DNA of 64,000 nt from Catajapyx aquilonaris (GCA_000934665.2 KZ538085.1:1-64000); one strand, 5' to 3'. Positions 46 to 55,800 are shown, numbered from the stretch's first letter. The notes: generated from the sequence alone by a model not told the origin. Made by a program: numbers and translations.

Positions 46-1612
46 TTCGATACTGACACTCTCTCCAGCATGTACTTATTGTAAAGAAAGGGCGCCACAA
101 TATACTAATCATCTCAATGTAGCGTCATTTGTCAAATAAACTCTCATAATATATCCGTGTATAATTATTTTCTATGGGAATTTATACAATAATATTATAC
201 AATCACCATAAAATGTTTTATTTCGGGTACATTTTTAGCCTTATTAGTGTATGAAGTAAAATAATGTGATAATGTGTCGGGCTTTCATTAAATAGGCACC
301 ATGTACTGAACAACTCAAAAATACAATACAGGTCCATGCTATACCCCGGAAGGGGTGAAAGCATTACCCTCAAATTATTATTATATTATTATGTGGTAAT
401 TTGTGTGTTTCAGTTATAGGCCTATACAGTAAAAAAGGCATATTCATTGTACAGAATATGTTTTATTAGAAACCATTATTTCCCCTGCTTTTCCAGTTTT
501 CCCGCCACTAATTCTTCCACCCTTTTCTCCCAGCCTGACATCTTTTCTCCAACTGAACCTGCGTTACTGAGCTAGTCAGGGTGTGACCCGAGGTCAGGGG
601 TCACACAATGTATTGTACTCTATAAACTATAAAGCATATAGGATATACCTACCAGATGTGTCCTTCTTTCTGAAGATTTGGCAACCCTACCTGCTACAGA
701 AGGCCTAAAAAGGGAAATGTCCACTAAAAGAAAATAGTAGATTCCCTCTCACACTCGTCAAAAACAAAACAAAAAAGGATAAGAAACTGTGTATGTTCAC
801 AAATTATTCCGTCTGCAGTCCACCACCACCATCATCACAACAAAATGTTACTGATACTTCAAGGGGCATTCTCTCAAACGCAACGTGTATCCATGGTACA
901 CAGAGTTGCGATTTTTTTAATGTAAATTGTGTACTGCATTATGTACATTAGTTAAAATCCGGACTCTAGTCATTACGCACTGTAATTATACAAGTCAGTT
1001 TCTCTACTTATTAGAATGTACAGAATACATCATTTCCTCGCTTCAAACCGAAAGTGTTGTGCCCGAAGAAGATTTAATTCCCGTCACGAGTCAACGGCGG
1101 AATTTGGTGTACGTTACCACATGGCTCTACAAAGTGAAGGTGAAGGGCGTATGAATGATTCAACGCGTTGCGTTGGCGAGACTGTGACAAGTACAGTAGT
1201 GGCGACAATCTCGCGGGTTCACTGCCTCTTCTAATAAACATATGTACTTCAAATGCAGCATCCAGTTTTGACATTTTTATTCAAATAAGTTTGCACTTCG
1301 GTACTCCGCTGTACACCACCTGCAGTGGTACTCTTTGGTATGTTCATCCACGGAAGTAATGGTCCCGGGTTCGATCCCAACCCCGCGGTCTCCCTTGTCA
1401 TTTCGTCAGGAGTTGTATCTCCAGCTTATTTGTAGTTACCAGAGGTAGTTGCCCTCGAATGTCGCACATTGTCACTGCACGCAGGAGTCTTGGTAGAGTA
1501 TAGTGAGAGACATAATGATTGTGCAAGTAATGAGCATTGTTTATTTTCATTCAATTGCTTTTACTCTTACAACTATTCAGTGGTAAATTGGTTGTTGTCG
1601 GCTGCTGCTGCT

Positions 1613-3220
1613 TCATACGGTGTGGACATCGACCTTGATCTCCAGATCGGCGTGTCCCTTGATGTTGCCCCTACCGTCGTTGGTGGCAGTGACGTGGGCG
1701 GTCAGGGTGTTGTTGACGATGACGGTGGTATGCTGTCCCCCGGATGAGGTGGCCTTGAACTTGGCGATACCGGATGCATTACCAGTGACGTCGAGAGAAT
1801 TGTCGGACCCGACGGTGACGCCGATCACGTTGTCGCTCGAGCCCATTCCAGTGACGGTGGTGTCGATGTTGTCGTCATAGTCGAGGGAGGCGCCGTTGAC
1901 GGTCACGTCATCATGGGCGGATATGGAGAAATTCTGCTTGTTGCCAGAGATGATTACGGTCCTGTCGACGACTGCACTGGCGTACTGTCGGATGCTGGGC
2001 CTGCCCATGACGTACATGTGGCTGACGACTCCAAGCTGAGCATTGGCGGTCGTCTGAAATTCGTCAAACGGTCATGTAACAATCTTCAGGCATTTTCGGG
2101 AATACAGACCGTGATGTCGTCAGAGTGTGTGTCGATGGTGAGGGCTTCAGTAACATCGACGGCGACGGAATTGGAGGAAGAGGAATGCGCAGAGTCGTGG
2201 TGTGAATTCATGAGGTAGTGGAAGATCTGGGTGCCGGCGACGGTAGCCTGGCTGACCACGTCCATAGTCTTGTCGCCCTTCTTAGCGGCGCTGACGACGT
2301 TGATGATGGCATGTTCACCGTGTCCGGTATCGACGACGGTACCGTCAGAATTATTGATATGAGCACCGGCCCCGTGGTTCACGTTGACTGCGCTGAAGGT
2401 CCTGAATGCATCACTATCCTGCCGACTTTCGAAGTCAACGTCGATGTAAAGTGCGACCTGAGCTTTAACGTCGTTGTCGCCGATTTTGACCTGGACATTG
2501 ACGAGATCCTCAATTGTGACCCTATTTTTGTCGACTCTGAAGCCGCCGCTCTTGGTGTAAGCCACTGAGTTTCCGTTCAGGCTGGCGGTTCCAGAGCCTG
2601 TCCAGGTTGCCAGATTGTCCTTCACAGTGATGTCGTCATCTTCGCTCACGACAATGTCAACGTTCAAATCGGCGTTGACATGCTCAGCAGTCTGTGAACC
2701 ACAACGGCAAGGTTTTCACATGTTCAGTCAGTTACGTCCACAAAGGTGTTAACTTATTTCTCCCAAAAAATGGAATGTCTGTGAGCAAGCGTGTGTCTCA
2801 CCTGCTTGAGGAGAGTCTTGAGGAGCTGAAGAGTGACCTTCCTGCCCTTGAAGCTGTTGGAGATGCATTGTCCGGCCTCGCTGACTCCGGTCTTCTCGAA
2901 GTTGCGGACGCAGAATCCGATGGTGCGGACCACATCTGGTAGAAAGCAATGTACATGACACGGTGAAACAAGACCAGACTGGACAATGCAACACTCACCG
3001 GCGTGCTCGACGAACTGGAAGTTGTCGTCCTTCTCGATCACCTCGGTGAAGATGGCCCTGTGGCCATGCTCATTGAGGAAGGCATCGTCCAGGGGTTTCA
3101 GGGGAGAGGCTGTCGAGGTAGCAGGTAAGATATTTATTAATATTATCTGAGATAATGAGGTACGGCGGTGGACATACCGGCGGCAAGGACGACGAGGAGA
3201 AGAGCGACGAAGAACTTCAT
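1613..3220 (-). CDS. Secreted beta-strand-rich protein of unknown family, paralog 1 (5 exons, 436 aa)
   Basis: Exons 3220-3178, 3109-2999, 2935-2802, 2691-2110 and 2053-1613, all GT-AG with consistent phase. Signal peptide MKFFVALLLVVLAA, then SPLKPLDDAFLNEHGHR..., two Cys (FCVRNF...GQCISNSF), then a V/T/S/G/D-rich region ending GHADLEIKVDVHTV*. Confidence 0.9.
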
Positions 3221-3533
3221 AGTGTCCGGATGAGCTGACTACGATCAAAACGTACTCCGCCTTTCATGTATCACACATCTTGATTACAAGTCTGATAACA
3301 TCGGACACCATTACAACATTTTATCGCAAGACAGATTTGGTATCACAAATACCGGTATACATTTAAAATAATACGGGAGCAGTGGTCCGTAACCCAAAAA
3401 ATTTGTAACAAATAAATTCTGAGGGGCATTCCAAATGAGTGTGGGAATAATGAGAGATCGTGAAAATATCTTCAACCGACATTTATTTCATTCTTGACAC
3501 TCCCATGCGTGATTGGCAGCAGCCTGGGCGGAC

Positions 3534-5172
3534 TTAATTATTTGGAAAATCGGAATGGAGGTCAGTCTTGACCTCGATGTCCGCGTGTCCCTTGATATGG
3601 CCGCTACCGTCGTTTATGGACGTGACATCTGCAGAAGCATTGTTGGTGAGGGTGACGTGGAACTTGTCTCCTTCGGCTGGGGTCACCTCGAAATGGGATG
3701 TTCCGTTGACCTTTCCGGAGATGTCGACGGACCTGTTGCCACTGACGTTGACGACGATCTGCGTGTCGCTGGACCCAACTCCGGTCGTGGAAGACACTGG
3801 TTTGTCCTCGTAGTCCCAGACGCCTGCATTGCCCACTAACTGGTCGTGAGCGGTGATGGTGAACATTTCCTTGTTTCCGGAGACCGTAGCTGTCTTGCGT
3901 ACGGAGTCGAAATCGTACACACGGGAGGTCGGTTTACCACCGAAGATGTAGTAGCCCATGTATGCAAAATCTAGGTCAGCAGCTATCTGAATATGGACAA
4001 AATGCTAGTGATCTAATCGGATGACTCTACGTCTAAAGAGAAGAGATCTGTTACATAGCTTGCGCAACTCGTCGCAAGTAACGTTTACAACTTAACCGTT
4101 GTGGTACTAAAACTAACCTGGACATCAGGAGTACTGAAGTCTATGTTGATGTAGTCGGTAGATCGGCAGCGTCGGATCTGCTGGCAGACGCGTGAGTCTC
4201 GCTGCCGTCAGAGTTGGTCGTGTGGTAGTGAGCTATCTGACTGCCGGTCACCACATGCACGGTCGTCAGAGAAACCAACTTGTCTTCCTTTCTGACCACA
4301 GTTTTCCCGTCGACAATGACCTGTCTGTTGAGGGTGGCTTCAGTGACGGAGCCGTCAGCAAAAGCGATGGAGGAACTTGAACTGTGGTGGAGGCTGCTGA
4401 CGGTGGCTGTCCGGTTATCATGACATGTGATATCTACGTCCAAGTATGTGACTGCACCACCTTTGACACTGTCGCCATTTCGGGCGACTCCTAGAACGTG
4501 GACCGCCTCCTCGAATGTCACCCGCTTGTCAGAGGTGTTGAGAAGTCCGGTCCTGTTGTACGACACTCCCTGACCGTTGACAGTGTAGGTTCCAGCACCA
4601 GTCCAAGTCAGTCCACTGGAGCCAATCTTGACGTCGAAATAGTCACTGACGACGACGTCAACATCCAGCTCCCCATTATCCTTCTGTACTACTATCTATA
4701 GGAACCACGACGTACAAGTGAAAAGCCTGCGGATCAAGACGAATACTCGAGTGTCTCACCTGCTTGAGGAATGTCTTCAGGAGCTGAAGAGTGACCTTTC
4801 TTCCCTCGAAACTGTTGGAGATGCAGTGTCCTGCCTCTCCGATACCTGTCTGCTGAAAGTTCCGGACGCAGAATCCGACGGTACGGACCAGATCTGTGTG
4901 TCAAAGAGTGTCGTATCACACATGGCTAAGGACATTTTGATGTCAACTCACCAGCATACGCGACTAACTGGAAGTCGTCGTCCTTCTCCGTCACATCCGT
5001 GAAGATGACTCTGTGTCCGTGCTCATGGAGAAAGGAGTCGTCCAGGCCATGAAGAGGGGACGTTGCAACTTCAAGAAAACAGAAACATTTTAATAATTAC
5101 TATTCAGCAATATTGTTGCTGGGACTCACCGACAGCGATGCAGACCAGAAAAAAAGCAGCAAAAGCCGTCAT
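3534..5172 (-). pseudogene. Divergent paralog 2 of the beta-rich family, with a 1-nt frameshift near 4160 (pseudogene or assembly error)
   Basis: Same 5-exon layout (signal MTAFAAFFLVCIAV; SPLHGLDDSFLHEHGHRVIF; FCVRNFQQ...GHCISNSF). Exon 4 reaches TAG at 4143-4141, but the shifted frame gives TDYINIDFSTPDVQ|gt, homologous to SEATLIDTRSADIQ|gt of paralog 3. Exon 5 (3986-3534) is intact. Confidence 0.75.
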
Positions 5173-5815
5173 TATGTTTCCAGGACACTGCTTTTCTGGC
5201 GAGTGGACCTCAAATGCTTTTTCTTATAATAAGGCATAATCAGCATTGTGCGATTGATCTTCCTTGTGATAAGTGGGCCCTCTTATAGGTGGGTTACTTG
5301 TGATAAGTTTGACTCGTTTGAGTGTTGGGATGAAATATTTTTGCAACAGGATGCTACACTGGATTTTCCAGTCAGGGGATTGATACCAGCAAGTGCTTTG
5401 AGGAAGTAGGGAAAATAAATAATGGCGTATGACGCAAGTAAATATTTTGTGCGTCGTGTTAGAAGATCGTTAACATAGGAAATAGATGATCCATACGTGA
5501 TTGAAGAGTATACAATATTTGATATCACTCGACAGGGGATAGAGGAGACAGTGTGATCTGTCCGTGAATATTATCAACGTGATTTATGTGCAAGTCACTC
5601 TTGCCCAAAACAAGGACAGGTGCTCTGTAATCAATGGTCTGGGAGAAAATTTTGTTACGTGAAGTATAGTAATAAAAAACCGTTGAGTATTCGTAATGAG
5701 AAATGCTTATTTTTCTTTTATTGTTGTTACTCTCGTGATTGCTGTTAGATTGTTTGTTGGCGGGAGCCTCGATGGAGGTGGCGGCTGTCGAGTATTGTTG
5801 TTGTATGCTGCTGCT

Positions 5816-7455
5816 TTATTCGGAGTGTACGTTGACCTTGATGTCAAGGTCGGCGTGACCCTTGATGTTGCCGCTGCCGTCGTTGGTGGCGGTGACGTGG
5901 GCGGTGCCGCTGCTGGTGACGGTGGAGGTGGTCCTGGTGCCCTGGGTTGGGGTGACCTCGACCTTGCCGGTGCCAGAGCAGCTGGCGGTGACGTCCAGGG
6001 ACTTGTCGGACCCGACGGTGACGTCGACTTTGTTCTCGCCAGAAGCGGTGCCGTCGACGTTGGCAGCGAGGTTGTCTGCGTAGTCGGCGAGGACAGTGTT
6101 GCTGGCCACGATATCTTGGGCGGTGATGGAGAACTTCTGCTTGGTTCCGGAGATGGTGGCGGTCATGCCGGCGGTTACAATACCGTACTGGCGGATGGCG
6201 GGCTTGCCTCCGGCGTACAAGTGGCTGACCACTCCCATGGCGACCCTGGCGGTCACCTGAAATGCGCACCAAAAGTTCGTGTCAACAAGGTTGTTAATTT
6301 AGGCCGGACTAGTAAGTAACAAATGCAGTTGGACAGACCTGGATGTCAGCAGACCTGGTGTCGATGAGGGTGGCCTCACTAGCATCGATGGCGTCGGACT
6401 TGGCGGCAGATCCATGGACCTGGCTGCCGTCGGCGTTGATCTTGTGGAGGTGGAAGATCTGGGAACCGGCGATGGAACCCTGGCTGGCAACGGCCAACAT
6501 CTGGTCGTCATTATTGGAAGAGGTAATGAGGTTGACGATGGCATGTCCACCAGCTCCCACTTCAATGACGGAACCGTCGGAACCGGTGACTTGAGCACCG
6601 ACGCCGTGGTTCACGTTGGTGGCGCTAGCAACCTGGAAGACGTCTCCGTCCTGCTTGGTAACGAAGTCAACGTCGATGTAGAGGGCAGCTTGGGCCTTGA
6701 CGTCATTGTCGCCGACCGTGGCATCGACACTGACGAGCTCCTCAAAGGTGACCCTGTTCTTATTGACCTTGAGCCCTCCATTCTTGGCGTACTTCACTGC
6801 CTTCCCGTTGACGGTGACGGTGCCAGTGGCACTCCAGGTGACCAGGTTGTCCTTCGCAGTGGCGGAGCTATCCTCGCTGACCACGATGTCAACTTTCACG
6901 TCGGCCTTGACCTCCTGAGCAGCCTGTGCATAACGACGGTAAAGTTAAACTCTGGCTCGTCTTGTCCACGAAGATGTTAAACATATTTCTCCTCGCAAAA
7001 AATGGAATATCTGTGAGCAAACGTGTGTCTCACCTGCTTGAGGAAAGTCTTGAGGAGCTGAAGAGTGACCTTCCTGCCCTTGAAGCTGTTGGAGATGCAT
7101 TGTCCGGCCTCGCTGACTCCGGTCTTCTCGAAGTTGCGGACGCAGAATCCGATGGTGCGGACCACATCTGGGAGAAAGCAATGTATACATGAGACGGTGC
7201 AACAAGACCAGACTGGACAATGCAACACTCACCGGCATGCTCGACGAACTGGAAGTTGTCGTCCTTCTCGATCACCTCGGTGAAGATGACCCTGTGGCCA
7301 TGCTCATTGAGGAAGGCATCGTCCAGGGGCTTCAGGGGAGAGGCTGTCGAGGTAGCAGGTAAGATATTTTATTAATATTAGCTGAGATAATGAGGTACGG
7401 CGGTGGACATACCGACGGCAAGACCGACGAAGAGGAGAGCGACGAATAACTTCAT
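5816..7455 (-). CDS. Secreted beta-strand-rich protein, paralog 3 (5 exons, 437 aa)
   Basis: Exons 7455-7413, 7343-7233, 7167-7034, 6923-6339 and 6256-5816, GT-AG. Signal MKLFVALLFVGLAV; ends GHADLDIKVNVHSE*. Confidence 0.9.
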
Positions 7456-9438
7456 TATGTCCGAATCAAGTCTCCGAGAGTACTCCCTTTGGCCGGACCC
7501 TTGCATCTTTCATACATTTAGATAACACGCCCGATAACTGCATACACCATTGCAACTAACATGATTGTACAGAAAGGAGACGTGGTGTCATAATATGGAT
7601 ATTTTAAAAAAAATCCTTCACGTGAGATAATCTCGTCGCCGGCATATAGGCGAATGGATGGCAACACTACCCCCGTGGTTAAGGCTACTGGTTAATATCG
7701 ATTACATCAATTCATGAAGTATATACCTAAAATATTCCAGCATGATAAGTAACGATGTACAGATTCCCAATATTGTCGATTTACAGATTACCGACCCATG
7801 CATTAAATACTATGCAAATTATGAATGAGGTGAACCTAACGGAAAAAATGTGAATCCAACCTCTATAATCCTGTATACTGACCTGAAAGACTCGATCCAT
7901 CCACAGCACTTCTTAACAAAGTGCATCAGTCGAGTTTAATGTCCCCCCTTTTATTCTCAGGTTAATATAAATTGCTGGCTGAAGGAGACCGAAAAAATCC
8001 CCCAAAAATGCAGGCGAATGTGCTTGGATGAATGATCCAGATAGGGGGACCTTGCGCATAAAAAGGCTGTCCTCTCAGCTAAAGCAACATTATATGGGTG
8101 GCATATAGGAGAATTGTAATTGCGGTATGTTTTTTTGACATTTTGTACCAAGATACAATCCAGTTATTGATGGATCCCCTGAATAGAGATTTTCTTAGTG
8201 CCGTGATGCAAACAAAAATTATATAACATAGGGATCGTAAGCCTCCCCTCCCTCTAGTATAACCGTTTATCATAATTATAAGCACCCCATTGTTTACATT
8301 AAACTGTCCCACGTACAGCATGAATCTGGTAATACACTTGCCTATATTTTTTCCGAGGGAAACAAAATAGCAAAATAGTCTGACAACAATAAACGCCCAC
8401 GCAGCAGAGCAATGCAGTCTACATGTCTACTACTCTTGTAATAGACAAAAGCCGCTAAGAAAATAATAGTTTAAACCGGTCTAAATGGTCCGTCCGTATG
8501 CTAATCACACCATTACGTAACTTTGAAACCTCTCTCCCTAGTCACATTCATCATTAGTAAAACCACTTATTATTTAAATCAATTTAAAAAATAATTGTAG
8601 CTTAAAATGGTTAAGATGGCGTTCATACATTAGGATATAATGAAAAGCCGTGAAATGAGATCATGTCGTATTGATGATCGTAATGATGAAGATGGGGAAG
8701 GTTAGGTCTTTTTAAAAATATTTTAAAGCCTTCTGTCACAGCATGTCTTTCAGCATGCAGAACACTGTACCACATTTTATTTCGTTGTTCATAATACTGT
8801 ATTTCAAACGTTTAAAACATACACGAGTCGTACCAAAAATTATAAGCCTAACTTATTAGAAGCCAGTAATTATGCGTGATTGTTTTCGGTCATATTGTGC
8901 AAGTTAGGCTACTCTTCCCTTCAGCAAGGACAAGAGTAGGCCCTATTATACTCTGCAATGGGTCAGCCATATTGTGCTCTGTACTCTTCTTACTGCCCAA
9001 TTTAAAAATACTATCGCACTGAAATTATTGATAAATGAGACGAACTTACTGATGATACATATTTTACACACTACATTTTGCACAAACGTGTGTTTATATG
9101 GCAATTGCGAGAATTGCATACAGGTATCACTGCTGTAACGTGGCGCTATAGAGCTGTGTAATTTTTTTTCTATTGCCAAAATAGCTGGCATTATTACAAG
9201 TGACTGTTGTCAGATTGCATGTGCAGGATTTCGACACACAGTATAATAAGGTGGGAGGTAATAATTTGGTCATACGAAGTGTATACTGTAGTAATAAGAA
9301 ACCGTTGAGTATTCGTAATGAGCAATGTTTATTTCTCTTTCATTGTTGTTACTCTCGTGATTGTTGGTAAATTGGTTGTTGGCGGGAGCCTCGATGGAGG
9401 TGGCGGCTGTCGAGTATTGTTGTTGTTGGGCTGCTGCT

Positions 9439-11077
9439 TTATTCGGAGTGTACGCTGACCTTGATGTCAAGATCGGCGTGACCCTTCATGTTGCCGCTGC
9501 CGTCGTTGGTGCCGGTGACGTGGGCGGTGCCGCTGCTGGTGACGGTGGTGGTGGTCTTGGTGCCCTGGGTTGGGGTGACCTCGACCTTGCCGGTGCCAGA
9601 GCAGCTGGCGGTGACGTCCAGGGACTTGTCGGACCCGACGGTGACGTCGACCTTGTTGTCGGCAGAACCGGTGGCGTCGACGGTGGCAAGGAGGTTGTCT
9701 GCGTAGTCGGCGAGGGCACCGTTGCTGGTCACGTCATCATGGGCGGTGATGGAGAACTTCTGCTTGGTTCCGGAGATGGTGGCGGTCTTGTCAGCGGTTG
9801 CAGAGCCGTAATTGCGGATGGCGGGCTTGCCTGCGGCATACACGTGGCTGACCACTCCCATGGCGGCCTTGGCGGTCACCTGAAATGCGCACCAAAAGCT
9901 CGTGTTAACAAGGGTTGTCAGTTTTGGCCGGACTAATAAGTAACACATTCAGTTGGACCGACCTGGATGTCAGCAGAGCTGGCGTCGATGGCAATGACCT
10001 CACCACCATCCATGGCGTCGGACTGGGCGGCAGAGCCATGGACGTCGCTGCCGTCGGGGTTGAGCTTGTGGAGGTGGAAGATCTTGGAACCGGCGGCGGA
10101 AGCCTGGCTGGCAACGGCCACCTTCTTGTCCTCCTTCTTGGCAGCGCTGATGACGTTGATGATGGCATGTCCACCAGCTCCCACTTCAGTGACGGTACCA
10201 TCGGATCCGGTGATTTGAGCACCGACGCCGTGGTTCACGTTGGTGGCGCTAGCAACCTCGAAGATGTCTCCGTCCGTCTTGGTAACGAAGTCAACGTCGA
10301 CGTAGAGGGCAGCCTGGACCTTGACGGCATTATCGCCGACCTTGTCATCGACACTGATGAGCTCCTCAATGGTGGCCCTGTTCTTACCGAACTTGGCTCC
10401 TCCTTCCTTGGTGTACTTCACTGACTTTCCGTTGAAGGTGACGGTGCCAGAGGCAGACCAGGTGATCAGGTTGTCCTTGGCAGTGGCGGAGCCATCCTCA
10501 GAGACGGCGACTTCAAAGGTAAAGTCGGCGTTGACCTCCTGACCAGCCTGTGCATAACGACGGTAAGGTTAAACTCACGTTCGTTACGTCCATAGTGATA
10601 TTAACATATTTCTCCCCCCAAAAAATGGAATATCTGTGAGCAAACGTGTGTCTCACCTGCTTGAGGAAAGTCTTGAGGAGCTGAAGAGTGACCTTCCTGC
10701 CCTTGAAGCTGTTGGAGATGCATTGTCCGGCCTCGCTGACTCCGGTCTTCTCGAAGTTGCGGACGCAGAATCCGATGGTGCGGACCACATCTGGGAGAAA
10801 GCAATGTATACATGAGACGGTGCAACAAGACCAGACTGGACAATGCAACACTCACCGGCATGCTCGACGAACTGGAAGTTGTCGTCCTTCTCGATCACCT
10901 CGGTGAAGATGACCCTGTGGCCATGCTCATTGAGGAAGGCATCGTCCAGGGGTTTCAGGGGAGAGGCTGTCGAGGTAGCAGGTAAGATATTTATTAATAT
11001 TAGCTGAGATAATGCGGTACGGCGGTGGACATACCGACGGCAAGAGCGACGAAGAGGAGAGCGACGAAGAACTTCAT
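9439..11077 (-). CDS. Secreted beta-strand-rich protein, paralog 4 (5 exons, 437 aa)
   Basis: Signal exon 11077-11035 (MKFFVALLFVALAV); exons 2-3 are near-identical to paralog 3; exon 4 is 10547-9963 and exon 5 is 9879-9439, ending GHADLDIKVSVHSE*. Confidence 0.9.
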
Positions 11078-11882
11078 GGTGTCCGGATGAGCTGATCAAG
11101 ACTCCGAAAGTACTCTGCCTCGGCAGACCCTTATATTCTCTCTCCCATCTTGATTGCAAGTCTGATAACAGTAAGGCAGCGTTGCGACATGTATCGCAAG
11201 TCAGTCTCATAATAGACATAAAAAAATGTTCCCGTGGGATATTCCAGAATAGGAAGCGGCACTTGAGGCGCAATCAGAACTATACTGATATGGAGAAGCC
11301 CCTTTTGGCTTTTGCAACATCACCACACCACGAGAGAGTCCTTGGCCGATCGGATAGTTATCAGCACACACGGTCGACATGTCACCAGTAATCTGCGACA
11401 GGTACTTGTGATGTCCACTTCATGTCCTGCCTCCCAACCACCCTCCGTACAATCTCGTTTATGTAACTTTGTCGTGTTGTTTCAGCCCGCGAGTAAGCAC
11501 TTGAGGAACTTATACGACTCTGTTCTTACAATTGGAGGAATGATATAGGCGTCATTGATTTAATAATGCAATGTAACATTTATTTTAATATTTCCAACGC
11601 GGATGTCATTGTTGGAAATGTTCATACCCCGTGCAAAGGTTCATAAATGTTAACACATCCAACAATGAGTCGACCCCATCACAATATTGCTCACTCGCAT
11701 CTTCAGTAAAGTGGCATAAGTGACTATGTAGAGAGAAATCTACTCAATTGTTGGACATGCCATGGCTATTTTTTTAATGCAATGAATGTGCCAATAATCG
11801 TCTATTTGAATTTATGCACACATTCATAATGAGCGTGGACCTGGCGTGGACGTAATTTTGTAATTTGAAATAGTCATTAAGG

Positions 11883-11932
11883 AACCGTTGCGTATTCCTA
11901 ATGAGCAGTGTTTATTTCTCTTTTATTGTTGT
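11883..11932 (-). pseudogene. Orphan 3'UTR/poly(A)-region remnant of a fifth family copy
   Basis: aaccgttgcgtattcctaatgagcagtgtttatttctcttttattgttgt closely matches the 3' ends of paralog 4 (~9299-9350) and paralog 3 (~5678-5727). No coding exons are seen upstream of it. Confidence 0.6.
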
Positions 11933-13211
11933 GTTTGCCCTCGACAGCATCGAAGGCGTCGGACTAGGCGACAGAGACGTGGTTCTGGCTACATTCGCCA
12001 TATTCTGTTTTTGCAATTTAAGTATTGAAAAACATTTGTGGAGTTTGATTGCATCTCACTTCTCGATCGTCAGAAGCGAGGCACACTCAAGAGTTGTAGT
12101 GTATACTTTCCACGTCAGCTGTCATACATGGTTCACGAACACTCATGTTGGATTTGCCTTGTACCAGGACAACACTTACTGGAAAAGTATGCAGCAAGAT
12201 AAATCTGCATTATTAATGTTAAACGAGGTAATCACGTCTCACTTGACGAGGAGAAAAATAATTTAGCCAACTTGCATTTATTGTAATTTTTGGCAATGTC
12301 CTAGTCATACGTGCACATGACATATTAAGTGCCGATAATGAAAGATATTGCGTAACGGGTACTTGAAAATTCGATTAATCATCACACTACCGATGCAAGT
12401 TGTTGAGCGAAGTTTTAAATGCACTGAAAAATAACTGAAAGAAGATATTTGTCCTCTCTCTTATCTCTCTGATGATTATCCTTCTCACGTAATGACTCGT
12501 AGCAAACAATCTCATTTCACCTTTGATTGCAAATAGTCGAGATTATAATGGTCCGCTGGGGTCAAGTGCTTCTTAAGTAATTACGCCTTCCGTTGATCGT
12601 TGTACCCAGATGCAATGCTTATTTTTTTGCAGGCTTATTTTTAATTTTTCAAATTAATCGTCAGCCTCTTATTGATTGTTATACCAAATTATTAAAGTTA
12701 AACAATGAATAATTACGCTGGATTATTTATTTATTGGTGTTTAAGAATTATGTGTACAAATAATTTTAATGGGAGATCAGAGAGAACGCCTATAATTATG
12801 TGCTCTGGGTAAACAATGTGCAACCTCTCGCCTTGAACTGTTGGACTTGGACATCACACAGTAATTTAATCATACGGTTAATTATTAGGATACAAATATA
12901 GGGTGCAGAGCACAGGACTATATTGCAACAGGTGCATGCAGGTGTGTCACAACAGGTGCTTGCAAATTGATTCAACGAGTGTACACATGTCTGGTTTTCG
13001 CCGGAACTTTTTGTCCTCTTTAATGTGTCATGCACATTATAGCGATACACTTTTCAGAAATGATACCTCGTATCTCTCTTTCTGTACCCGCATGACCACC
13101 ACCACTTGAAGATTAAACTTTTTGCAACAACTTGCCAAGTCACGCCACTGTGTGTTCATATAGCCTCAATATTCCAATGATGCAATAAGGTTTTATTTTA
13201 ATATTTTATTT

Positions 13212-14542
13212 TCACGTGGTATTGTTCTTGATCCGATCAGGAAAAACATACTCGTTAATGAAGGAGCTTACTGAGAATGAGCTAACAAAGGGCCCGTATC
13301 TTCGATAGTATGTCCAGCAGTTGGGTCCGTTTGATTCCGTTGTCTGGATCGCAACTAGTTCGCCTTCGCACACCAGAGGTCCCCCGTTGCTTACCTGCGT
13401 CCAAGTGATTGGGAAAATGTGAAAGCTATACGAGTTACGTAACTCAAAAACTTTAATAGTGTTTATGTCCTTCAAATTTCGACTTTTTTTGGACAGAATT
13501 GGTTGTGTACTTGCCATGCAAAATATGAGGTATCCTCCAGAATATCCTGCGCAGATCAGGTCGTCCCTCAGCCAGAAATTGCTGGACTCGCGACAGGCGT
13601 ACGGACCTTGGATGAACATGGAGAGGTTGCTCGCATGAACTTCGCTCACTCGAACCACCTCCATCGACCTCATCTGAATATTCGAAAATTATTACAATCA
13701 TGAAAATATCCCCAACATAACAATTATTTTCTGTCGTACTCTCGCAGACAAGTTACACTGACCTCTGTTGTGTAGTAAACTCCATGCATGACACATGCAG
13801 TACCGAGCAGGCCCCTGTCTCTGGTCTGCACAGGTACAGGCCGCACGTCCTTGTTCAGCTCAAACGGTCCAGATGCCTGCAACACACACGAGATGTACAG
13901 GGTGCAACGTGATTGAAAATATCGATGATGATACCTGGACCAGAGCAACTGAATATCCCTCCTGTCCAATGCTGTAATTCGGATGAGTGATGAACCTCTG
14001 GACAGACCTTTTTTGCAACGAACCAATCGAGCTGTCTGCCTGGTACCCAACCACCATGTACGGCTCGCAACACCACCTGGCCAATTGTGCACAATACTGT
14101 TGATAAATCTCATTTCGTCTAAACCAGCCTCGTTAAGAACTTAGCAGCCTTTAGATGTTAACATGCCATATTGAGGTGCCACTGACTTTGCAAATAGTTA
14201 TGCGAATATTTACACGTAACGCATTTTTTAAAAGTAATGCACTGGTCATATCCTGAAGTAATGAAACACCTTACGTGACACATGTAGCTGATGTGATGGC
14301 CCATCTGGCCGAAATGAGCGTGGCCACACACAGGAATCCGGTTCGATCGTACAGGGTGGCCTGAAAAACCACACTGTATTGCCCCGAGAGAAAAAATGCG
14401 CGAACCATTTTAATACCAATCCTGAAAAATAGGTGGGATTGCGATTGGTGTCCACTGCATCCTTTCCTATCCGCAATCCTCCGTCACTGCCGTCTTTCAG
14501 GTGCTGAAGAGACATCAGGATCCAAAAGGAAGGTGGAAGCAT
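13212..14542 (-). CDS. Secreted trypsin-fold (S1) serine protease homolog, catalytically inactive
   Basis: Spliced exons give FLCVATLISARWAITSATC (TAAHC site), FITHPNYSIGQEGYSVALVQ (DIAL site), VRPVPV, LICAGY and CMVSNGGPLVCEGELVAI (GDSGGP site). Exons 14076-13935, 13876-13763, 13673-13515 and 13394-13212 join in phase; the last intron has a GC donor (gcaagt). The first exon boundaries are less certain. Confidence 0.8.
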
Positions 14543-31333: not shown

Positions 31334-34300
31334 TTACGTTTGCTGAGACGACTTCAAGGTGTCAAACAGCTCTCTGAAAAAGGATCAACCGAATGTACAC
31401 TGAGCAACTCACACGCAGCACGATTTGTATGAAATTCCTCATGCACATGCGGTCATACCAAATAATTTGTAAGTGCACCAATGCAAATTACTGTTTGCTG
31501 AAGGCGTAAGTCAAGCAATTTTTAGTATTAAACAGAGAAGTCCTCACCTCCACATGTAAAAAAATATGTATCCTGTCTCTTGAGAGTCTTTCCCCAAAAT
31601 ATTCTTCTCCTCGACCTCCCGAACTGTAAGGTCATTGTAGTAAAACCACTTCTGGCGTGAAAGGTCAAACACGTCCGCCACGTAATGCCCTGAGCTTGAG
31701 TCCACACCAGAGTGACACACTATCCCAACCAAGCGGTAGTCCAACTTTCCGTCACAGACACTGATGGGGATCGGGGAAGGAGACGGGGAGGAGGATGGGG
31801 ACGCGTAAGATGGTTGAGGCACTTCTCCGTTCAGGCTCAGCTCAATGGCTTTCTTCACGTCCTCTTCCTCCTTCCTCTGACTGTCCGCCTGCTCCTCAAG
31901 GCTCAGCTGAAGTACACGTTTCATCTCGTCATCATCCCTATCAAATGCGAAAAAAACCGTATTAATATCTCAGTTTTGCTGTTAACTAACGTGTGGTTTC
32001 TTACTCGAGATCACCGCCTCTATTCAGCTTCACTGGCGATTGCGCTGGGGTTACAGCCGGGGTCAACACAGGGTTGACCCACCGCACTGGCCCACAGAAA
32101 TCGGCAGTGACAAAAGTGTCGAGGGCCAAAGAGAGCGGGATGGCAACCACAGTGTTAATCTTCTTGGAGCCAGAGTCAAATGCGTAGCGCTTGAGTTGGA
32201 GGATAAGGACCCGCGGTATACAGTTGAACACACTAGTAAGCCGACTCCGCTGACACTGACATGCATCACACTTGTAGTCAACTTCCTGTGGAGCCATGTA
32301 GTTGGAAAGGGCCGAAAAAAGGGTTGGGCGTGATGGGAGGCCTGGAGAATCCCCACATACGCCGTGTGTCGGGATGTCCAAGAACATCGAGAAGTAGTCC
32401 TGACGGCTAGTCACAACCTTCTCGCAACTGTGGGGAGAAAAGTAAATGTTCAGAACTGAGTGTGAGTCGAGCTTTTGGGGCGAGAGACTGACCTTATACA
32501 CTGATAGGTGTTAAGCATCTGAAACCCAAAGTTGTTTTTGATTGGGTTCCCCGTAACTTCCTCTTCCGTCCCCTTGTCGTCAGTAGCCTCTGGCCCAGCT
32601 TCCTTCTCGTTCTCAGTGCCTTTCCCACTTCCCAGCTTGTCGGGAGGATCTTCGAATATTGTCCCACTCTCGTCTTCCTTTCTCGCATCTTCGGATCCTG
32701 CCTTCTTGTCCTTCTCACTTCCCAATACCCTGTCAATGTCATCCTTGATCGAGTCTAGAACACGGATCAAGAACTCGTTTGCATCTTGCATCTGCGCTCC
32801 TAGAAAGTTACGGTCAATGGCCTCCAGTGCGTATTTCACGCCATTCAAAGCTCTTCGAACACCACTTTCGTTACAGCGTCGCTTGCTTTTCACCAGGTCT
32901 AACAAGTTTGTCACCAGTGCACCAAACTTATGCCCTCCTGTGGCACCAGAACCATGCTTGCTCATGTAAAGCATTTCATCTGTGAAGGAACTAAGACTCA
33001 GCAAGGCCTGCAAGCCCGCATTCAAGTAGCACGTATTGCCGAGGTTCGGGAAACCAATCACATCAGGACCAATCCCCAAGCCAACACCTGAAGAATACTG
33101 CGAGTCCAGATCGGTTCGGCTAGAAGGTGGTGCCAATCCAGGACGAGGTCGCAGTTTGATGTGTTGAGGGGATGATATCACACGAGCCTTTTTCTGTGCG
33201 CTGGGATATTCCCTTATGAACCGGGAAGGAGGGCTCAAGGGTGGAACCTCATCAGCGTCGTCTGAAATGTGTCCGTTTGATGTCCCCTTGGCTCCTTCCA
33301 ACCGAAGGCGCTTGTTGACTGGGGCAGGCCGAGGGGCTGGTTTGGACAGTAAGGAACTGCGCAGGGTTGGACTCCGCTGGTGGCTGTATTTCAGAGAATA
33401 ACCATTGGTTCGTTGTCTTCAAAGGTTACAAATCATAGATGTCTAATTTACTCAAGACTCACTTGGCACGCTGGGATAGGTTGGTGTTCTCCTTTTCATC
33501 TTCCTCCTCATCCGAATACTTATCATATGGGTCACAGTCTTTATCATTCGAAGGTTGAGGTACACGATGAGACGACGAAAACAACGCCACTTTTGGCCTT
33601 GGTGTATTACTGCAAAGTAGATAATAAGGCAGTGACAATTAGTTTCATAGCAATTAAACTACTTTTTGGATACGGCTGAAATAAATTCAATGACACCATC
33701 AAAGCGAGTTTATATTAACTTTGAAATTTATGAACATCAAACAATGTGTCACATTAACAATACTGCGGGATATTAATGCAAGGAAACTAAAATAAAGCAG
33801 TGCATAATTTTCAAAAGCATCCATGCAACAGCATCACCTGCAAAAGGCCTGTCGCCCAATCTGTTTTCATAATATCCCCAACGCTGCCAGTAACGGGGGG
33901 AGTAGCCTACGAATTAAAAGTCAACTGACCGATTCTTGAACTTGTAGGGTACAAGCTTATCCTGCGGATCATCAAAGACAGTCCTGTAACTTCTGCCTGC
34001 CTTCCCCGTGTGGCGGGAGACATACTGATACACAGACTTCTCACGGTTAATTCTCGGCCGTTCAGGGGAAGACTCGGGAGAATCAGGTTCCGGATCCAAA
34101 ATCCGACTCTTGCTGGTGTGCAACCTAAAAACACATGCAATTGAAGTCTCGCAGGCAGTGCAAATAAAAACAGGGGGCACATGCAACCAAGCGCAAAGTA
34201 ACTGCTGGCGTAAATTAGCACACGGATTACAGTGTTGATTAGCAGAGCGACAGACCATTCCGTACTGTTGACCCCCGTTTCTTCCAGGCATCGCGGTGGT

Positions 34301-37304: not shown

Positions 37305-41844
<4,540 letters not shown>

Positions 41845-51812: not shown

Positions 51813-52253
51813 TCAATTGTCACTGACGTCGACATTCTCAGTTTGCAGTCCCTTGAAGCCCTCGACTGGGACGTACGTAACGAGGGTGTACAGCTTGTGC
51901 GGTGAGTCCTCATCCTCGTTGCGCCGGCGGGAGAGACGCACTCGCATGCGGAAGGGCACGTTCCTATCAAGTGGAGGGGAAAAATTAAACCAAATTTGTT
52001 CCGTACATTTCCGTCCAAGCCGAACGTACCTGACTCCCTTGCTCCAGACCTGCTTGTTGAGCCTGATGTCAATCCGGACGTCCTCGGTGCCCATCTGCTG
52101 CACTGCGAACTTCCTGATCTCCTTGATGGCCCGAGGAGCCCTCCGCTTGAACCCGATGTTATGCAGGCGCTTGTGCAGGTTGACGGTGTACTCCCGGGTC
52201 ACCACCTCGTTGATGGCCGACTTGCCCTTACGCTCTCCCTTTGCCTTGGCCAT
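51813..52253 (-). CDS. RpL31: 60S ribosomal protein L31
   Basis: [31 protein letters not shown]...[43 protein letters not shown]; 66-nt intron at 52029-51964; probable non-coding first exon ~52460-52422. Confidence 0.97.
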
Positions 52254-52855
52254 CTGAAGGAGAGACACACTGTGATGGACCAGCAGCCTAGGCTTAAACA
52301 ACAGTGTTATAATGAAGATGGTTTCTCAACGGATGTGGCTTCCAGGAAATGTATCGAGGGCCTCAGATTGGCTGGAAGTGGTTAAATGTAAGGAAAAGTT
52401 GGCCACAAGTTGAAAAACTCACGTCTTTTTTCTTTCCTTTCCGAGTCGAACAGAAGCCACGCGACGAACTAGTCAGGACCGGAAGCGCAGCTCAGGGCTC
52501 GATATGTGGGACGCCAAGTACAGCTAGCCAACACAATCCGACCCTATTGCTACTGTTGTCGGCTCATACTATTTCGATACAACTGTACCTCTCATGTAAA
52601 TCATCGTTATGACGTCACACGATGTGGGCCCTGCAAGAAGCGTGTCCTTCTGGTTTCTATGCTCGTGGCGGGGCCCCCAACATGTGCTGGGCCAACAAAG
52701 AGGGGTAAGTACACTCTGATATGACCTCTTGTACCCCCCTAAATCTTGATTACTTCTCATGTGGTGCTATGCAGAGCCTGGGAAACTTCTACACTGGCAG
52801 TGTCTCGCTGGGGATCAACCCAGGAAGAAAAGGAAGGTGGCAGTGGCAGCGACCA

Positions 52856-55800
52856 ATGACGATGAAGGTTTCGCTTGTGGTTGCAGTACTTGTTGCTGCT
52901 GCGCCTACTCTAGCAATAAGTGAGTACCTGGCAATGATAGGTTTAATTGTTTCAAAATATTGATTGGTTTTGCCATGCTTATCAATATCATGTCATCAAT
53001 ACGTTGCAACGATGAGCAGGAAAAGGCAGCGTTGTGTTCAACATGCGCATATATGAATGTGCCATGTTGACAGCCATGAAACATTCAGTGAATTGCGTGA
53101 ATAACAGTCATGTTGTGGCTTGCAAATCACTCTGAGCAAGTTGGGAGTAGTTTTGAATCATCCTGTACCATACGCAGAAAGTGGTACTTACAGGGAACGT
53201 CTTAATATGTGGATTGAAGGAAATGTCAGTAATGTTAATCATGTCAAAGTCATAAACTACATCGTCAGTGGCTAGAGGGTGAGTTACAATCGTCTTTTTT
53301 TTTTGTTGTCAACTTTGGAATGATTAACCTTATCATCTGTTTTTGTAAGTGTCACCTTCATTTTGTGCGTTCCTTGTGGTGATAATGACTGAACTTGACT
53401 GATATTGTTCATCTAAGTACAAAGTAAAATGGAAGAAAATGTTTTTGCAGGTTCATGAACTTCTTGCAATGTATCTTGTTTACTAATCACAATCTTCTTG
53501 CCCAGTAATTGTCCATAACTTGCAAAGTTTTTGTATACATTTGTGTACTCCTGACACACGTTTTTTTCCCCCTCATTGCTATAGATTTGGAACGATGGCC
53601 AGAGCTGTCTCGCACATTAACCCCGTCTGCTTCAGCCGAGGTTCAGACTGAAGCTGTCCAACAATTGATCCACCGCCTGATTCCATCCCGATCTAGCGAG
53701 TTCAATGCACGAGTTGATCCAAGTTTGGCCATTGGTTCTCGAGAAGGGGACACATTCAGCATACTGAAGATTCCAGGCGTTCCCTTCGTGGAGATAGTTG
53801 GAAGCACTGGAGTTGCGGCCTCGATGGGTTTCTTGCATTACCTGAAATATTTCTGCTACTGTCACGTATCATGGGAGGCTGACCAGTTGAACCTGCCTGA
53901 CACACTACCTAGTGCAAGCGTAGCAATAGTGACCAACGACAGGTTGCGATACTACCAGAATGTGTGCACTGTTAGCTACAGCTTTGCCTGGTGGGACTGG
54001 AGCCGTTGGGAACGTGAGATTGACTGGATGGCCATGAATGGGATCAACATGCCCCTGGCCTTCACGGGTCAGGAGGCCATTTGGGAGGCGGTGTTGCTGC
54101 GACTTAACCTGACCCAGCATGAGATTGACGCATTTTTTGCCGGACCTGCCTTCCTTGCATGGTGTGTTGTGAGATTCTTCTTGTGCACAAATATGCAATT
54201 TTGTATGCCCATTATTGCAGGGGTCGCATGGGCAACATTCGAGGCTGGGGTGGACCTTTGTCGTCCAATTGGCATCATGCTCGGCTGCAGCTTCAGAAGA
54301 AAATTCTGGCTCGCATGCGTTCCCTTGGTATGCTCCCGGTGCTGCCTGCTTTCGCTGGTCACGTCCCGGCTGCATTTGAGCGTGTTTTTCCAAACGCAAG
54401 TCTCACTCGGCTCAAGTCGTGGAATTCGTTCAGCTGCAACTACTCCTGGTATGAAGTCTCAAATTCAGCGACTTTGAACATTTACCACAACTTTTGTTGC
54501 ATACATTTTCAGCACATACCTGATGAGTCCAACAGATCCATTATTTCAACAAGTGGGCGCAATGTTTATGAAGGAGGCAAGAGAAGCAGTTTTCACACAT
54601 TTTGTAGTTAAATATTGCGCTGCATTGTGGCTCATTTGCTCTTTTTAATATTGACAGATGATATCCCAGTTTGGGACAGACCATTTGTACAACTGCGACA
54701 CGTTCAATGAAATGCGTCCTCAGAGTTCAGATCCAAAGTATTTGGGCGCTGTCGGCAAAGCGACTTTTGATGCTATGAACAATGTGGATCCGAAAGCTAT
54801 TTGGTGAGTTTATGTGCGGCGTTGTGAACGTAGTCACATGTAGGATGTATACAAGGTAATGAGAGTACAAATATGCAATACAAAAAAAAAAAACAGGGTC
54901 ATGCAGGGGTGGCTTTTCCATCATGACTTCACCTTTTGGAATTCCGCTCGAGCCCAAGCTTATCTCACATCCGCTCCCATTGTGAGTAAGGTCTCTCGGT
55001 TAATAATTTTCTGTCCTTTGCTTGTTTAAAAATAGATTCAAGGAATGGCTTGTAGTATTGGTTAGATGTAAATCTGTCTCATTGGCTTACAGTATGTAAT
55101 CTGGATGTCAGTGGTCTGGATTTTAAAAGGAAATTCAATTCTCCATCACCAAAATATAAAGTACTTTAAATAGTGCATGATTTCAGTATGCAATGTTATG
55201 TGAGTAGAAATGCATGAAAATGCTACAACAATAACTGCAACTAACTTGGTCGCTACAAACATGAAGGCAATCCATGTTAAAAAGCTCTTACGACATCTCC
55301 GTTTCAACATAGCCGCACAATTCATAGCACACTTTAACTCCTTTCCTGGTTTTTGTGTGAATTTGTCCGCTCTTACGACATGGATTGCAGTCTCCTTTTT
55401 AACGAAGCGTATCTTGTTGCTGCATATTAACCTAACAAAAATGCTCGACCATTATACCGTTTCTCTCTCTTTGCATCTGCTTTTACTCTGGAATTGTGCT
55501 GTCTAGGGTGATGCAAGGATGGCTGTTTATAGATGAGTCTTTTTGGGGAATCAATCAATCCCAAGCTTACCTACTGTCAGCTCCAGTTGTAAGTACCTCA
55601 GATAACCCAGGTTATGCATGTGGTTCATTCGGATCATGTTGCATTTCCCTTTTATTAGTTCCGTGTGTTAACATAATATGGCTCTTTATTTCTCGCAGGG
55701 CCGGATAATAGTTTTGGACCTGCAATCTGAACTTAGTCCGCAGTTTTGGAGGCTGAAGTCTTACTTTGGGCAACCATTCATTTGGTGCATGCTCCAGAAT

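Follow-up and report, generated by a model that had tools for sequence, protein, structure and literature searches.

We analysed a 64,000-nucleotide window of Catajapyx aquilonaris DNA (KZ538085.1:1-64000). From a listing of its stop-to-stop open reading frames (ORFs), together with the minus-strand sequence, we recognised animal nuclear DNA with four similar genes between positions 1613 and 11077, all of them on the minus strand. Each gene has five exons, and all 16 of the introns have GT-AG ends. The four paralogues, which we call A to D, encode putatively secreted proteins with a long body of alternating hydrophobic and polar residues, and they represent an arthropod gene family that is real, transcribed, and lineage-restricted.

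Three of the paralogues are intact. Paralogue A (1613..3220, minus strand) encodes 436 amino acids (aa) in exons at 3220-3178, 3109-2999, 2935-2802, 2691-2110, and 2053-1613, with GT-AG boundaries at all introns of the model and a TGA stop codon at 1615-1613. Paralogue C (5816..7455, minus strand; 437 aa) has exons at 7455-7413, 7343-7233, 7167-7034, 6923-6339, and 6256-5816. For paralogue D (9439..11077, minus strand; 437 aa), exon 1 (11077-11035) encodes the signal peptide, exons 2 and 3 (10966-10856 and 10790-10657) encode an N-terminal module (the N-module) with Cys60 and Cys75, exon 4 (10547-9963) encodes nine predicted strands, and exon 5 (9879-9439) encodes another seven predicted strands and the stop codon.

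The remaining gene, paralogue B (3534..5172, minus strand), is the most divergent copy, with exons at 5172-5130, 5068-4952, 4893-4760, 4683-4118, and 3986-3534. Its exon 4 is frameshifted and interrupted by a stop codon: the exon is 566 nt long (versus 582-585 nt in the other copies), a TAG lies in frame at 4143-4141, and the conserved splice donor is reached only in another frame, with the frame change near 4160. B is 31% identical to D in exon 4 and 38% identical in exon 5. As far as the sequence indicates, B is probably a pseudogene or the product of an assembly indel. An earlier note on this DNA had described four paralogues that share one architecture, and this description stands, coordinates included, with one correction: exon 4 of B is broken.

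With the D locus as a blastn query on the window, we also identified the relic of a fifth copy (11878..11982, minus strand), which lies just upstream of D. One piece of the relic (11878-11932, 55 nt) is 91% identical to 9295-9349, directly downstream of the stop codon of D, and the other piece (11936-11982, 47 nt) is 79% identical to 9995-10041, within exon 4 of D. When we compared the D protein to the 64-kb window with tblastn, the four loci were matched and no further copy was found.

We aligned the contigs of four sequencing runs, among them run X5 and the DNA run X1, to positions 1400-11300. We found no RNA run listed for this region. Run X5, which is public, has the same organism label and comprises 32 Mb of contigs; its kind is not recorded. 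In the X5 contigs, two introns of A are skipped exactly: intron 4 (2053>2110, 56 nt) and intron 3 (2691>2802, 110 nt). The joint across intron 4 of C was found at 6254>6337, which after a shift of +2 is 6256>6339, and four contigs have a joint across intron 4 of D at 9877>9961, which after a shift of +2 is 9879>9963. Another joint leads from 6923 (in exon 4 of C) to exon 3 of D, which is identical to exon 3 of C. Intron 2 is probably spliced out too, to judge from a loose end of 10 letters at 10791 that, as we read it, corresponds to the end of exon 2. None of these intron-skipping joints is present in the DNA run X1. The word depth is 9,082 for the contigs with the D joint versus 27-85 in the DNA run; word depth is no measure of expression, and all that we take from this difference is an indication that X5 does not consist of genomic DNA. 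The earlier note had named a lack of spliced transcripts as grounds for abandoning its reading. Spliced transcripts do exist: for A, C, and D, their joints fall exactly at predicted introns.

A spliced X5 contig of 1,316 nt matches B (3717-5054) at only about 85% identity over the listed pieces, and the differences also appear at about half depth in X1. Because of this low identity and these half-depth variants, we conclude that at least one further B-like copy exists and is expressed, located either at another site in the genome, outside the window, or on the other haplotype. (Stretches of B that lack identical X5 cover were left uninterpreted.) We also noticed that runs X6 and X7, which are labelled as other organisms, contain one short contig each (248 and 189 nt; depth of about 2) with an identity of 99% or more to exon 5 of D (window 9431-9760). 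Possible sources of these contigs are an abundant transcript that was carried over, DNA of prey or of a guest, and a closely related organism. Separately, intron 2 of A (2936-2998) is 63 nt long (it is 65 nt in C and D) and is open in frame, so that an unspliced transcript would yield an N-module with 21 extra residues.

The encoded proteins have three parts. Residues 1-15 (MKFFVALLFVALAVA, just before SP) are a putative signal peptide, which we assigned by eye; residues 16-96 are the 81-aa N-module with Cys60 and Cys75; and residues 97-437 are the body (340-341 aa). C and D have one extra cysteine, at position 384. The mature proteins are 43.7-44.8 kDa and acidic (pI 5.1-5.4). The body consists largely of V (11-13%), A (9-14%), T (10-10.6%), S (9.4-9.7%), G (8-10.6%), and D (8.5-10.6%), with very little P (0.3-0.9%) or C (0-0.3%) and with 2.6-4.7% His. 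Five His are invariant across the four copies. The C-termini are ...VHSE, ...VHSE, ...VHTV, and ...DFPNN. In these respects the proteins are as the earlier note had described them: a secretory signal (by reading), an N-module of about 80 aa with a Cys pair, and a body rich in V, T, S, G, D, and A and low in P and C.

The alternation of hydrophobic and polar residues that had been noticed in the body is also strong by a statistical measure. The hydrophobic moment of the body at period 2 has a z score of 5.2-5.5 in A, C, and D, and for each of them this was reached in 0 of 2,000 shuffles. In B, the alternation is lost in exon 4 (z of 0.3) and retained in exon 5 (z of 3.9). The body has no internal repeats, again as claimed: a comparison of the profiles of the exon-4 and exon-5 halves by hhalign gave a probability of 0.17% and an E value of 0.36.

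We modelled the parts of the body that are encoded by exons 4 and 5 separately with AlphaFold2 (AF2), in each case from an alignment of the four paralogues. The model of exon 4 of D (195 aa) has a predicted local distance difference test (pLDDT) score of 83.4 and consists of a simple up-and-down meander with nine strands, each 12-21 residues long. The model of exon 5 of D (146 aa) has a pLDDT of 93.4 and shows seven strands of 14-20 residues, and three of the five models had a pLDDT of at least 88. Taken together, the body is predicted to be a continuous antiparallel meander of 16 strands, with turns of 2-5 residues. All-beta meanders with 9 and 7 long strands fit the proposal of a long antiparallel beta-sheet or barrel protein. 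When we docked the exon-4 and exon-5 halves, the scores were 0.15, 0.33, and 0.28, against a mark of 0.34, and no contacts were returned, so that this result speaks neither for nor against closure into a barrel.

The two faces of the predicted sheet differ in composition. Across the 16 predicted strands of D, the 136 positions on the hydrophobic face include 32 V, 26 A, 16 G, and 11 I, with just eight aromatic residues, and the 136 positions on the polar face include 25 T, 19 S, 16 D, 16 A, 15 K, and 9 H.

To our searches, the family has no recognisable relatives. Among the four exon products of D, no Pfam family was above its cut-off with E values of up to 1 considered, and specifically there was no match to outer-membrane proteins, porins, attacins, LLTP/Vitellogenin-N, or pore-formers. 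The hits to gpW (E = 0.16), GldM_3rd (E = 0.058), and DUF7407 (E = 0.7) are all below the Pfam cut-offs and were rejected. The N-module also had no match in Pfam; here the query was the read-through of intron 2 of A (2802-3107), which includes the 21 intron-encoded residues. Against the sequences in the Protein Data Bank (PDB), profiles of exons 4 and 5 had 0 and 5 matches (best E = 0.028), with no barrel protein among them, and the N-module had nothing better than E = 0.028. For exon 4 of D, two word-indexed searches of 5.8 billion proteins gave 4,655 and 352 candidates, none with E ≤ 1e-3. For exon 5, a HMMER search of a profile against 1.84 billion representatives gave six matches with E of 1e-3 or better, all of them bacterial. 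Five of these were inspected, and each is a tandem-repeat protein in which 3-7 stretches are matched (in three, the repeats look like bacterial Ig-like repeats); the sixth has 12 matched stretches. We rejected these matches as reflecting composition or repeats. In the ESM Atlas, the best scores for exons 4 and 5 were 0.76 and 0.78, which is below the useful level, and two scans of metagenome contigs gave 124 and 277 pattern matches, none of which was confirmed.

Thus, these collections contain no detectable homologues, and the statement that the family is not a recognised one holds across Pfam, the PDB sequences, and the protein collections. The lack of relatives may partly reflect the databases. 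The exon of a neighbouring MNK-type kinase gene is closest to a termite protein (79% identity), followed by proteins of other insects (74-78%) and of crustaceans and a scorpion (72-73%). Since there was no match at 100%, the proteome of the source arthropod is not in the collections. We also searched the literature by topic, for secreted invertebrate amphipathic sheets that bind lipid and for porin-like barrels in insect hemolymph, and found nothing relevant among the titles listed; the family itself was not searched for by sequence in this way.

In a search of the predicted fold against all representative structures, the walls of outer-membrane barrels ranked at the top. These barrel matches have a root-mean-square deviation (rmsd) of 2.3-5 Å, and we read them as indicating curved, barrel-wall-like sheets. 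The best Foldseek match of exon 4 is the microsomal triglyceride transfer protein (6i7s_H; E = 7.7e-5, probability of 1.00, query TM-score [TMq] of 0.45), which is no barrel. The list for exon 4 also includes 8eoj_B (TMq of 0.49) and apoB100 (9coo_A). For exon 5, Foldseek listed the pore states of pleurotolysin, the complement membrane attack complex (MAC), and gasdermin (E from 1.3e-4 to 1e-2), but with TM-scores of 0.14-0.25 and rmsd of 18-40 Å, these are matches to long hairpins only. All of the matches to the models have a single feature in common, an extended antiparallel sheet that is amphipathic and faces lipid on one side. An amphipathic antiparallel sheet of the lipid-binding kind, one mark of the LLTPs, is present in the predicted fold.

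In other respects the family differs from each of these systems. Outer-membrane barrels have an aromatic girdle and a C-terminal beta-signal that ends in an aromatic residue. Neither was found in the family: aromatic residues are at 8 of 136 positions on the hydrophobic face, and none of the four copies has an aromatic residue at its C-terminus. Also, unlike the TonB-dependent transporters, CymA, OmpG, and the autotransporter barrels, the family is encoded by nuclear genes with eukaryotic introns, has a putative signal peptide of the endoplasmic reticulum type, and has short turns at both ends of the sheet. Attacins, which are kin to the outer-membrane barrels in the clan system of Pfam, are another point of comparison. 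For a fly attacin, similar fold matches to porin walls and damage to outer membranes are reported (PMC10690985). The body of our family is about three times as long as the mature attacin of 130 aa given there, the proteins are acidic, and they have the N-module with its Cys pair in addition. The beta-belt of apoB100 and the sheets of other LLTPs share no sequence similarity with the family, which has no LLTP domains and is just 44 kDa with 16 strands, versus thousands of residues. The apoB belt is described as a continuous amphipathic beta-sheet on lipid whose strands average 11 residues, and AF2 models of it collapse without lipid (PMC11839476); the strands of the family are longer (12-21 residues), and the family has its own N-module and no helical inserts. 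The vitellogenin-derived pigment protein DBXN is described as having a 16-stranded sheet around a cavity that holds phosphatidylcholines and pigments (PMC12167979).

The two modules of these genes have had different histories. Over the stretch that begins with intron 1 and ends with exon 3, the DNA of A, C, and D is 95-100% identical, and this applies to introns as well as exons. In exons 4 and 5, A is 73-77% identical to C or D, and C and D are 86-92% identical to each other. Because the identity of the 5' part extends through introns and is so much higher than the 73-92% in exons 4 and 5, the alignments point to gene conversion among A, C, and D that is restricted to the 5' module. In the body, the ratio of nonsynonymous to synonymous rates (dN/dS) is 0.62 for A versus C or D and 1.84 for C versus D. 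The latter value reflects 100 nonsynonymous differences (Nd) at 776.8 sites (N) and 18 synonymous differences (Sd) at 246.2 sites (S; Fisher's exact test, p = 0.016). By codon position, C and D have 46, 40, and 32 differences, and there is no indel over 1,023 nt. Among the 83 amino acid changes between C and D, 63 keep the hydrophobic or polar class, versus 57.7% for random substitutions (p = 0.0008). Because the changes preserve class and there is no indel, we conclude from the aligned copies that the alternation is held while the residues of the body turn over. Conservation does not differ significantly between the hydrophobic and polar faces (Fisher's exact test, p from 0.09 to 0.44).

The reading that we favour, though only tentatively and with somewhat less than even confidence, is that the body is an amphipathic beta-sheet that, once secreted, binds to lipid or to a hydrophobic phase of some other kind, as the sheets of apoB, LLTPs, and DBXN do. 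The aliphatic face would be buried against a hydrophobic phase (the lipid of a lipoprotein, a membrane, cuticular lipid, or an enclosed ligand), and the polar face would be in water. The sheet might be open and rest on the surface of lipid, or it might roll up around its load, and lipid would be held much as it is by the beta-belt of apoB100, by LLTP sheets, or by DBXN. The 81-aa N-module, which is capable of forming a disulphide, would be the constant part (a lid, a plug, or a docking piece), and the sheet would be the variable part. Because the sheet changes its amino acids quickly yet keeps its alternation, selection may act on its surfaces at an interface with other organisms or with ligands. 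A bolder version of this reading is that each protein is a soluble, porin-sized, single-chain barrel or a miniature apoB-like belt of 16 strands, with the N-module as plug or lid, a lumen that is loaded with lipid or a sheet that turns its aliphatic face to the outside and inserts into a target membrane, and diversification under positive selection. We think that this full version is quite unlikely to be right.

Several observations weigh against a lipid-binding sheet. For exon 4, only two of the five models had a pLDDT of 81-83, and the other three were at 39-42. The halves were folded apart and from alignments of just four paralogues. The residues of the hydrophobic face are small (Ala and Gly make up 31%), which would also suit tight packing of sheet on sheet with no lipid at all. 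Pfam gave no link in sequence to the LLTPs. Finally, the evolutionary evidence can be read in other ways: in 8.9% of trials, the frame stays open under random substitutions, and by this test alone the data are compatible with relaxed constraint on one copy; and a dN/dS above 1 in secreted genes in tandem is more what one expects of proteins of immunity, venom, or reproduction than of bulk carriers of lipid.

Another explanation is that these are defence proteins or toxins that attack membranes, either as monomers or as oligomers that form a porin-like barrel, as has been proposed for insect attacins. We regard this as possible but doubtful. Tandem duplication and the dN/dS of 1.84 between C and D would suit an arms race, and the five invariant His could serve as a pH switch. 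The pore states of pleurotolysin, the MAC, and gasdermin do appear among the matches of exon 5, but with the low TM-scores given above, and no attacin, outer-membrane protein, or pore-forming family was matched in Pfam. The aromatic residues expected of such a barrel are scarce on the hydrophobic face and absent from the C-terminus, and with a pI of 5.1-5.4 the proteins are unlike most antimicrobial proteins, which are cationic.

It is unlikely, in our view, that the proteins are instead a self-assembling structural or adhesive material, such as a fibre, eggshell, cuticle, or cement, in which Val/Ala/Gly faces stack in a cross-beta or silk-like manner. With 74 Ala, Gly, and Val among 136 residues, one face does resemble tightly packed beta-sheet materials, and the turns are tight and the body is almost free of Pro and Cys. 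Codon usage is like that of a ribosomal protein gene: the G+C content at third codon positions (GC3) is 0.71-0.83 in the family and 0.76-0.88 in RPL31 in the window, compared with 0.53-0.60 in USP and NAGLU. Tandem clusters with gene conversion, which is what we see here, are known for eggshell and silk genes. On the other hand, structural silks and cements are usually repetitive, and the family has no sequence repeats; the defined strand lengths, the conserved turns, and the motif NDG.G..KGHAD, which is invariant across the copies, are as in a globular fold; and AF2 was confident on isolated monomers. The earlier note was reminded of barnacle cements of the cp19k type, and we find no support for this likeness. 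Like our family, CP19k and CP43k are secreted arthropod proteins (CP43k is of similar size) that are rich in small and hydroxyl residues and are said to form beta-rich assemblies. However, a study of CP19k and CP43k gives a bias towards G/S/A/T, under 1% His, and internal repeat motifs (PMC8561864), and the family is rich in Val (11-13%) and Asp (8.5-10.6%), has 2.6-4.7% His, and lacks repeats. This comparison is of statements about composition, not of sequences.

A binder of flat surfaces is very improbable. In this reading, the 9-strand and 7-strand halves would lie face to face in a thin two-layer sandwich and the Thr/Ser/Asp faces would bind ice, calcium mineral, or chitin. Thr and Ser account for 44 of the 136 residues on the polar face, there are Asp-X-Asp and Thr-X-Thr stretches in the strands, and an inner face of small residues would permit very close packing. 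But the polar face is broken by 15 Lys and 9 His, the paralogues do not share a regular TxT array, and the AF2 sheets are curved like barrel walls, judging from the matches to barrels.

If the bolder version of the favoured reading were correct, this would be the first small exchangeable apolipoprotein made of beta-sheet, or the first "soluble porin." To our knowledge, the small exchangeable apolipoproteins are all helical, and the only large amphipathic beta-sheets that sit on lipid in animals are those of the giant LLTPs (apoB and vitellogenin). Porin-like sheets belong to the membranes of bacteria and organelles and, by prediction, to attacins. A compact secreted protein of 44 kDa that is almost entirely such a sheet would be a tractable model for how amphipathic sheets stay soluble, bind lipid or membranes, and evolve, and the family might be a source of scaffolds from which to build lipid carriers, coatings that act like surfactants, or membrane-active proteins. 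The genes are also a case in which one module evolves in concert beside another that diverges quickly, inside single genes.

The other genes that we identified in the window are at 31544-33418 (a UCH-type ubiquitin protease with UIM motifs), 37766-38770 (the MNK-type kinase), 51813-52325 (ribosomal protein L31e), and 53509-54477 (alpha-N-acetylglucosaminidase, NAGLU). These are ordinary housekeeping genes. Closer to the family, at 13212-14140 on the minus strand, two ORFs resemble the C-terminal region of a protease of the trypsin family and have ...SNGGPLVC... at what we take to be the site of the catalytic-serine motif. As raw ORFs, they had no match in Pfam at E = 0.01. They may be the "pseudo-protease" whose position beside the family, along with that of surface proteins, had been used to suggest a gland or host-interface product. 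That argument from the neighbours is weak: the flanking genes that could be identified are ordinary, and the putative pseudo-protease ORFs have no Pfam match.

Lastly, there are open frames of up to 225 aa on the plus strand, antisense to the exons of the family (1748-2218, 5687-6319, 6303-6980, and 9361-9936). These are probably not genes but a by-product of the codon usage of the sense strand, which is rich in GC3 and poor in stop codons.

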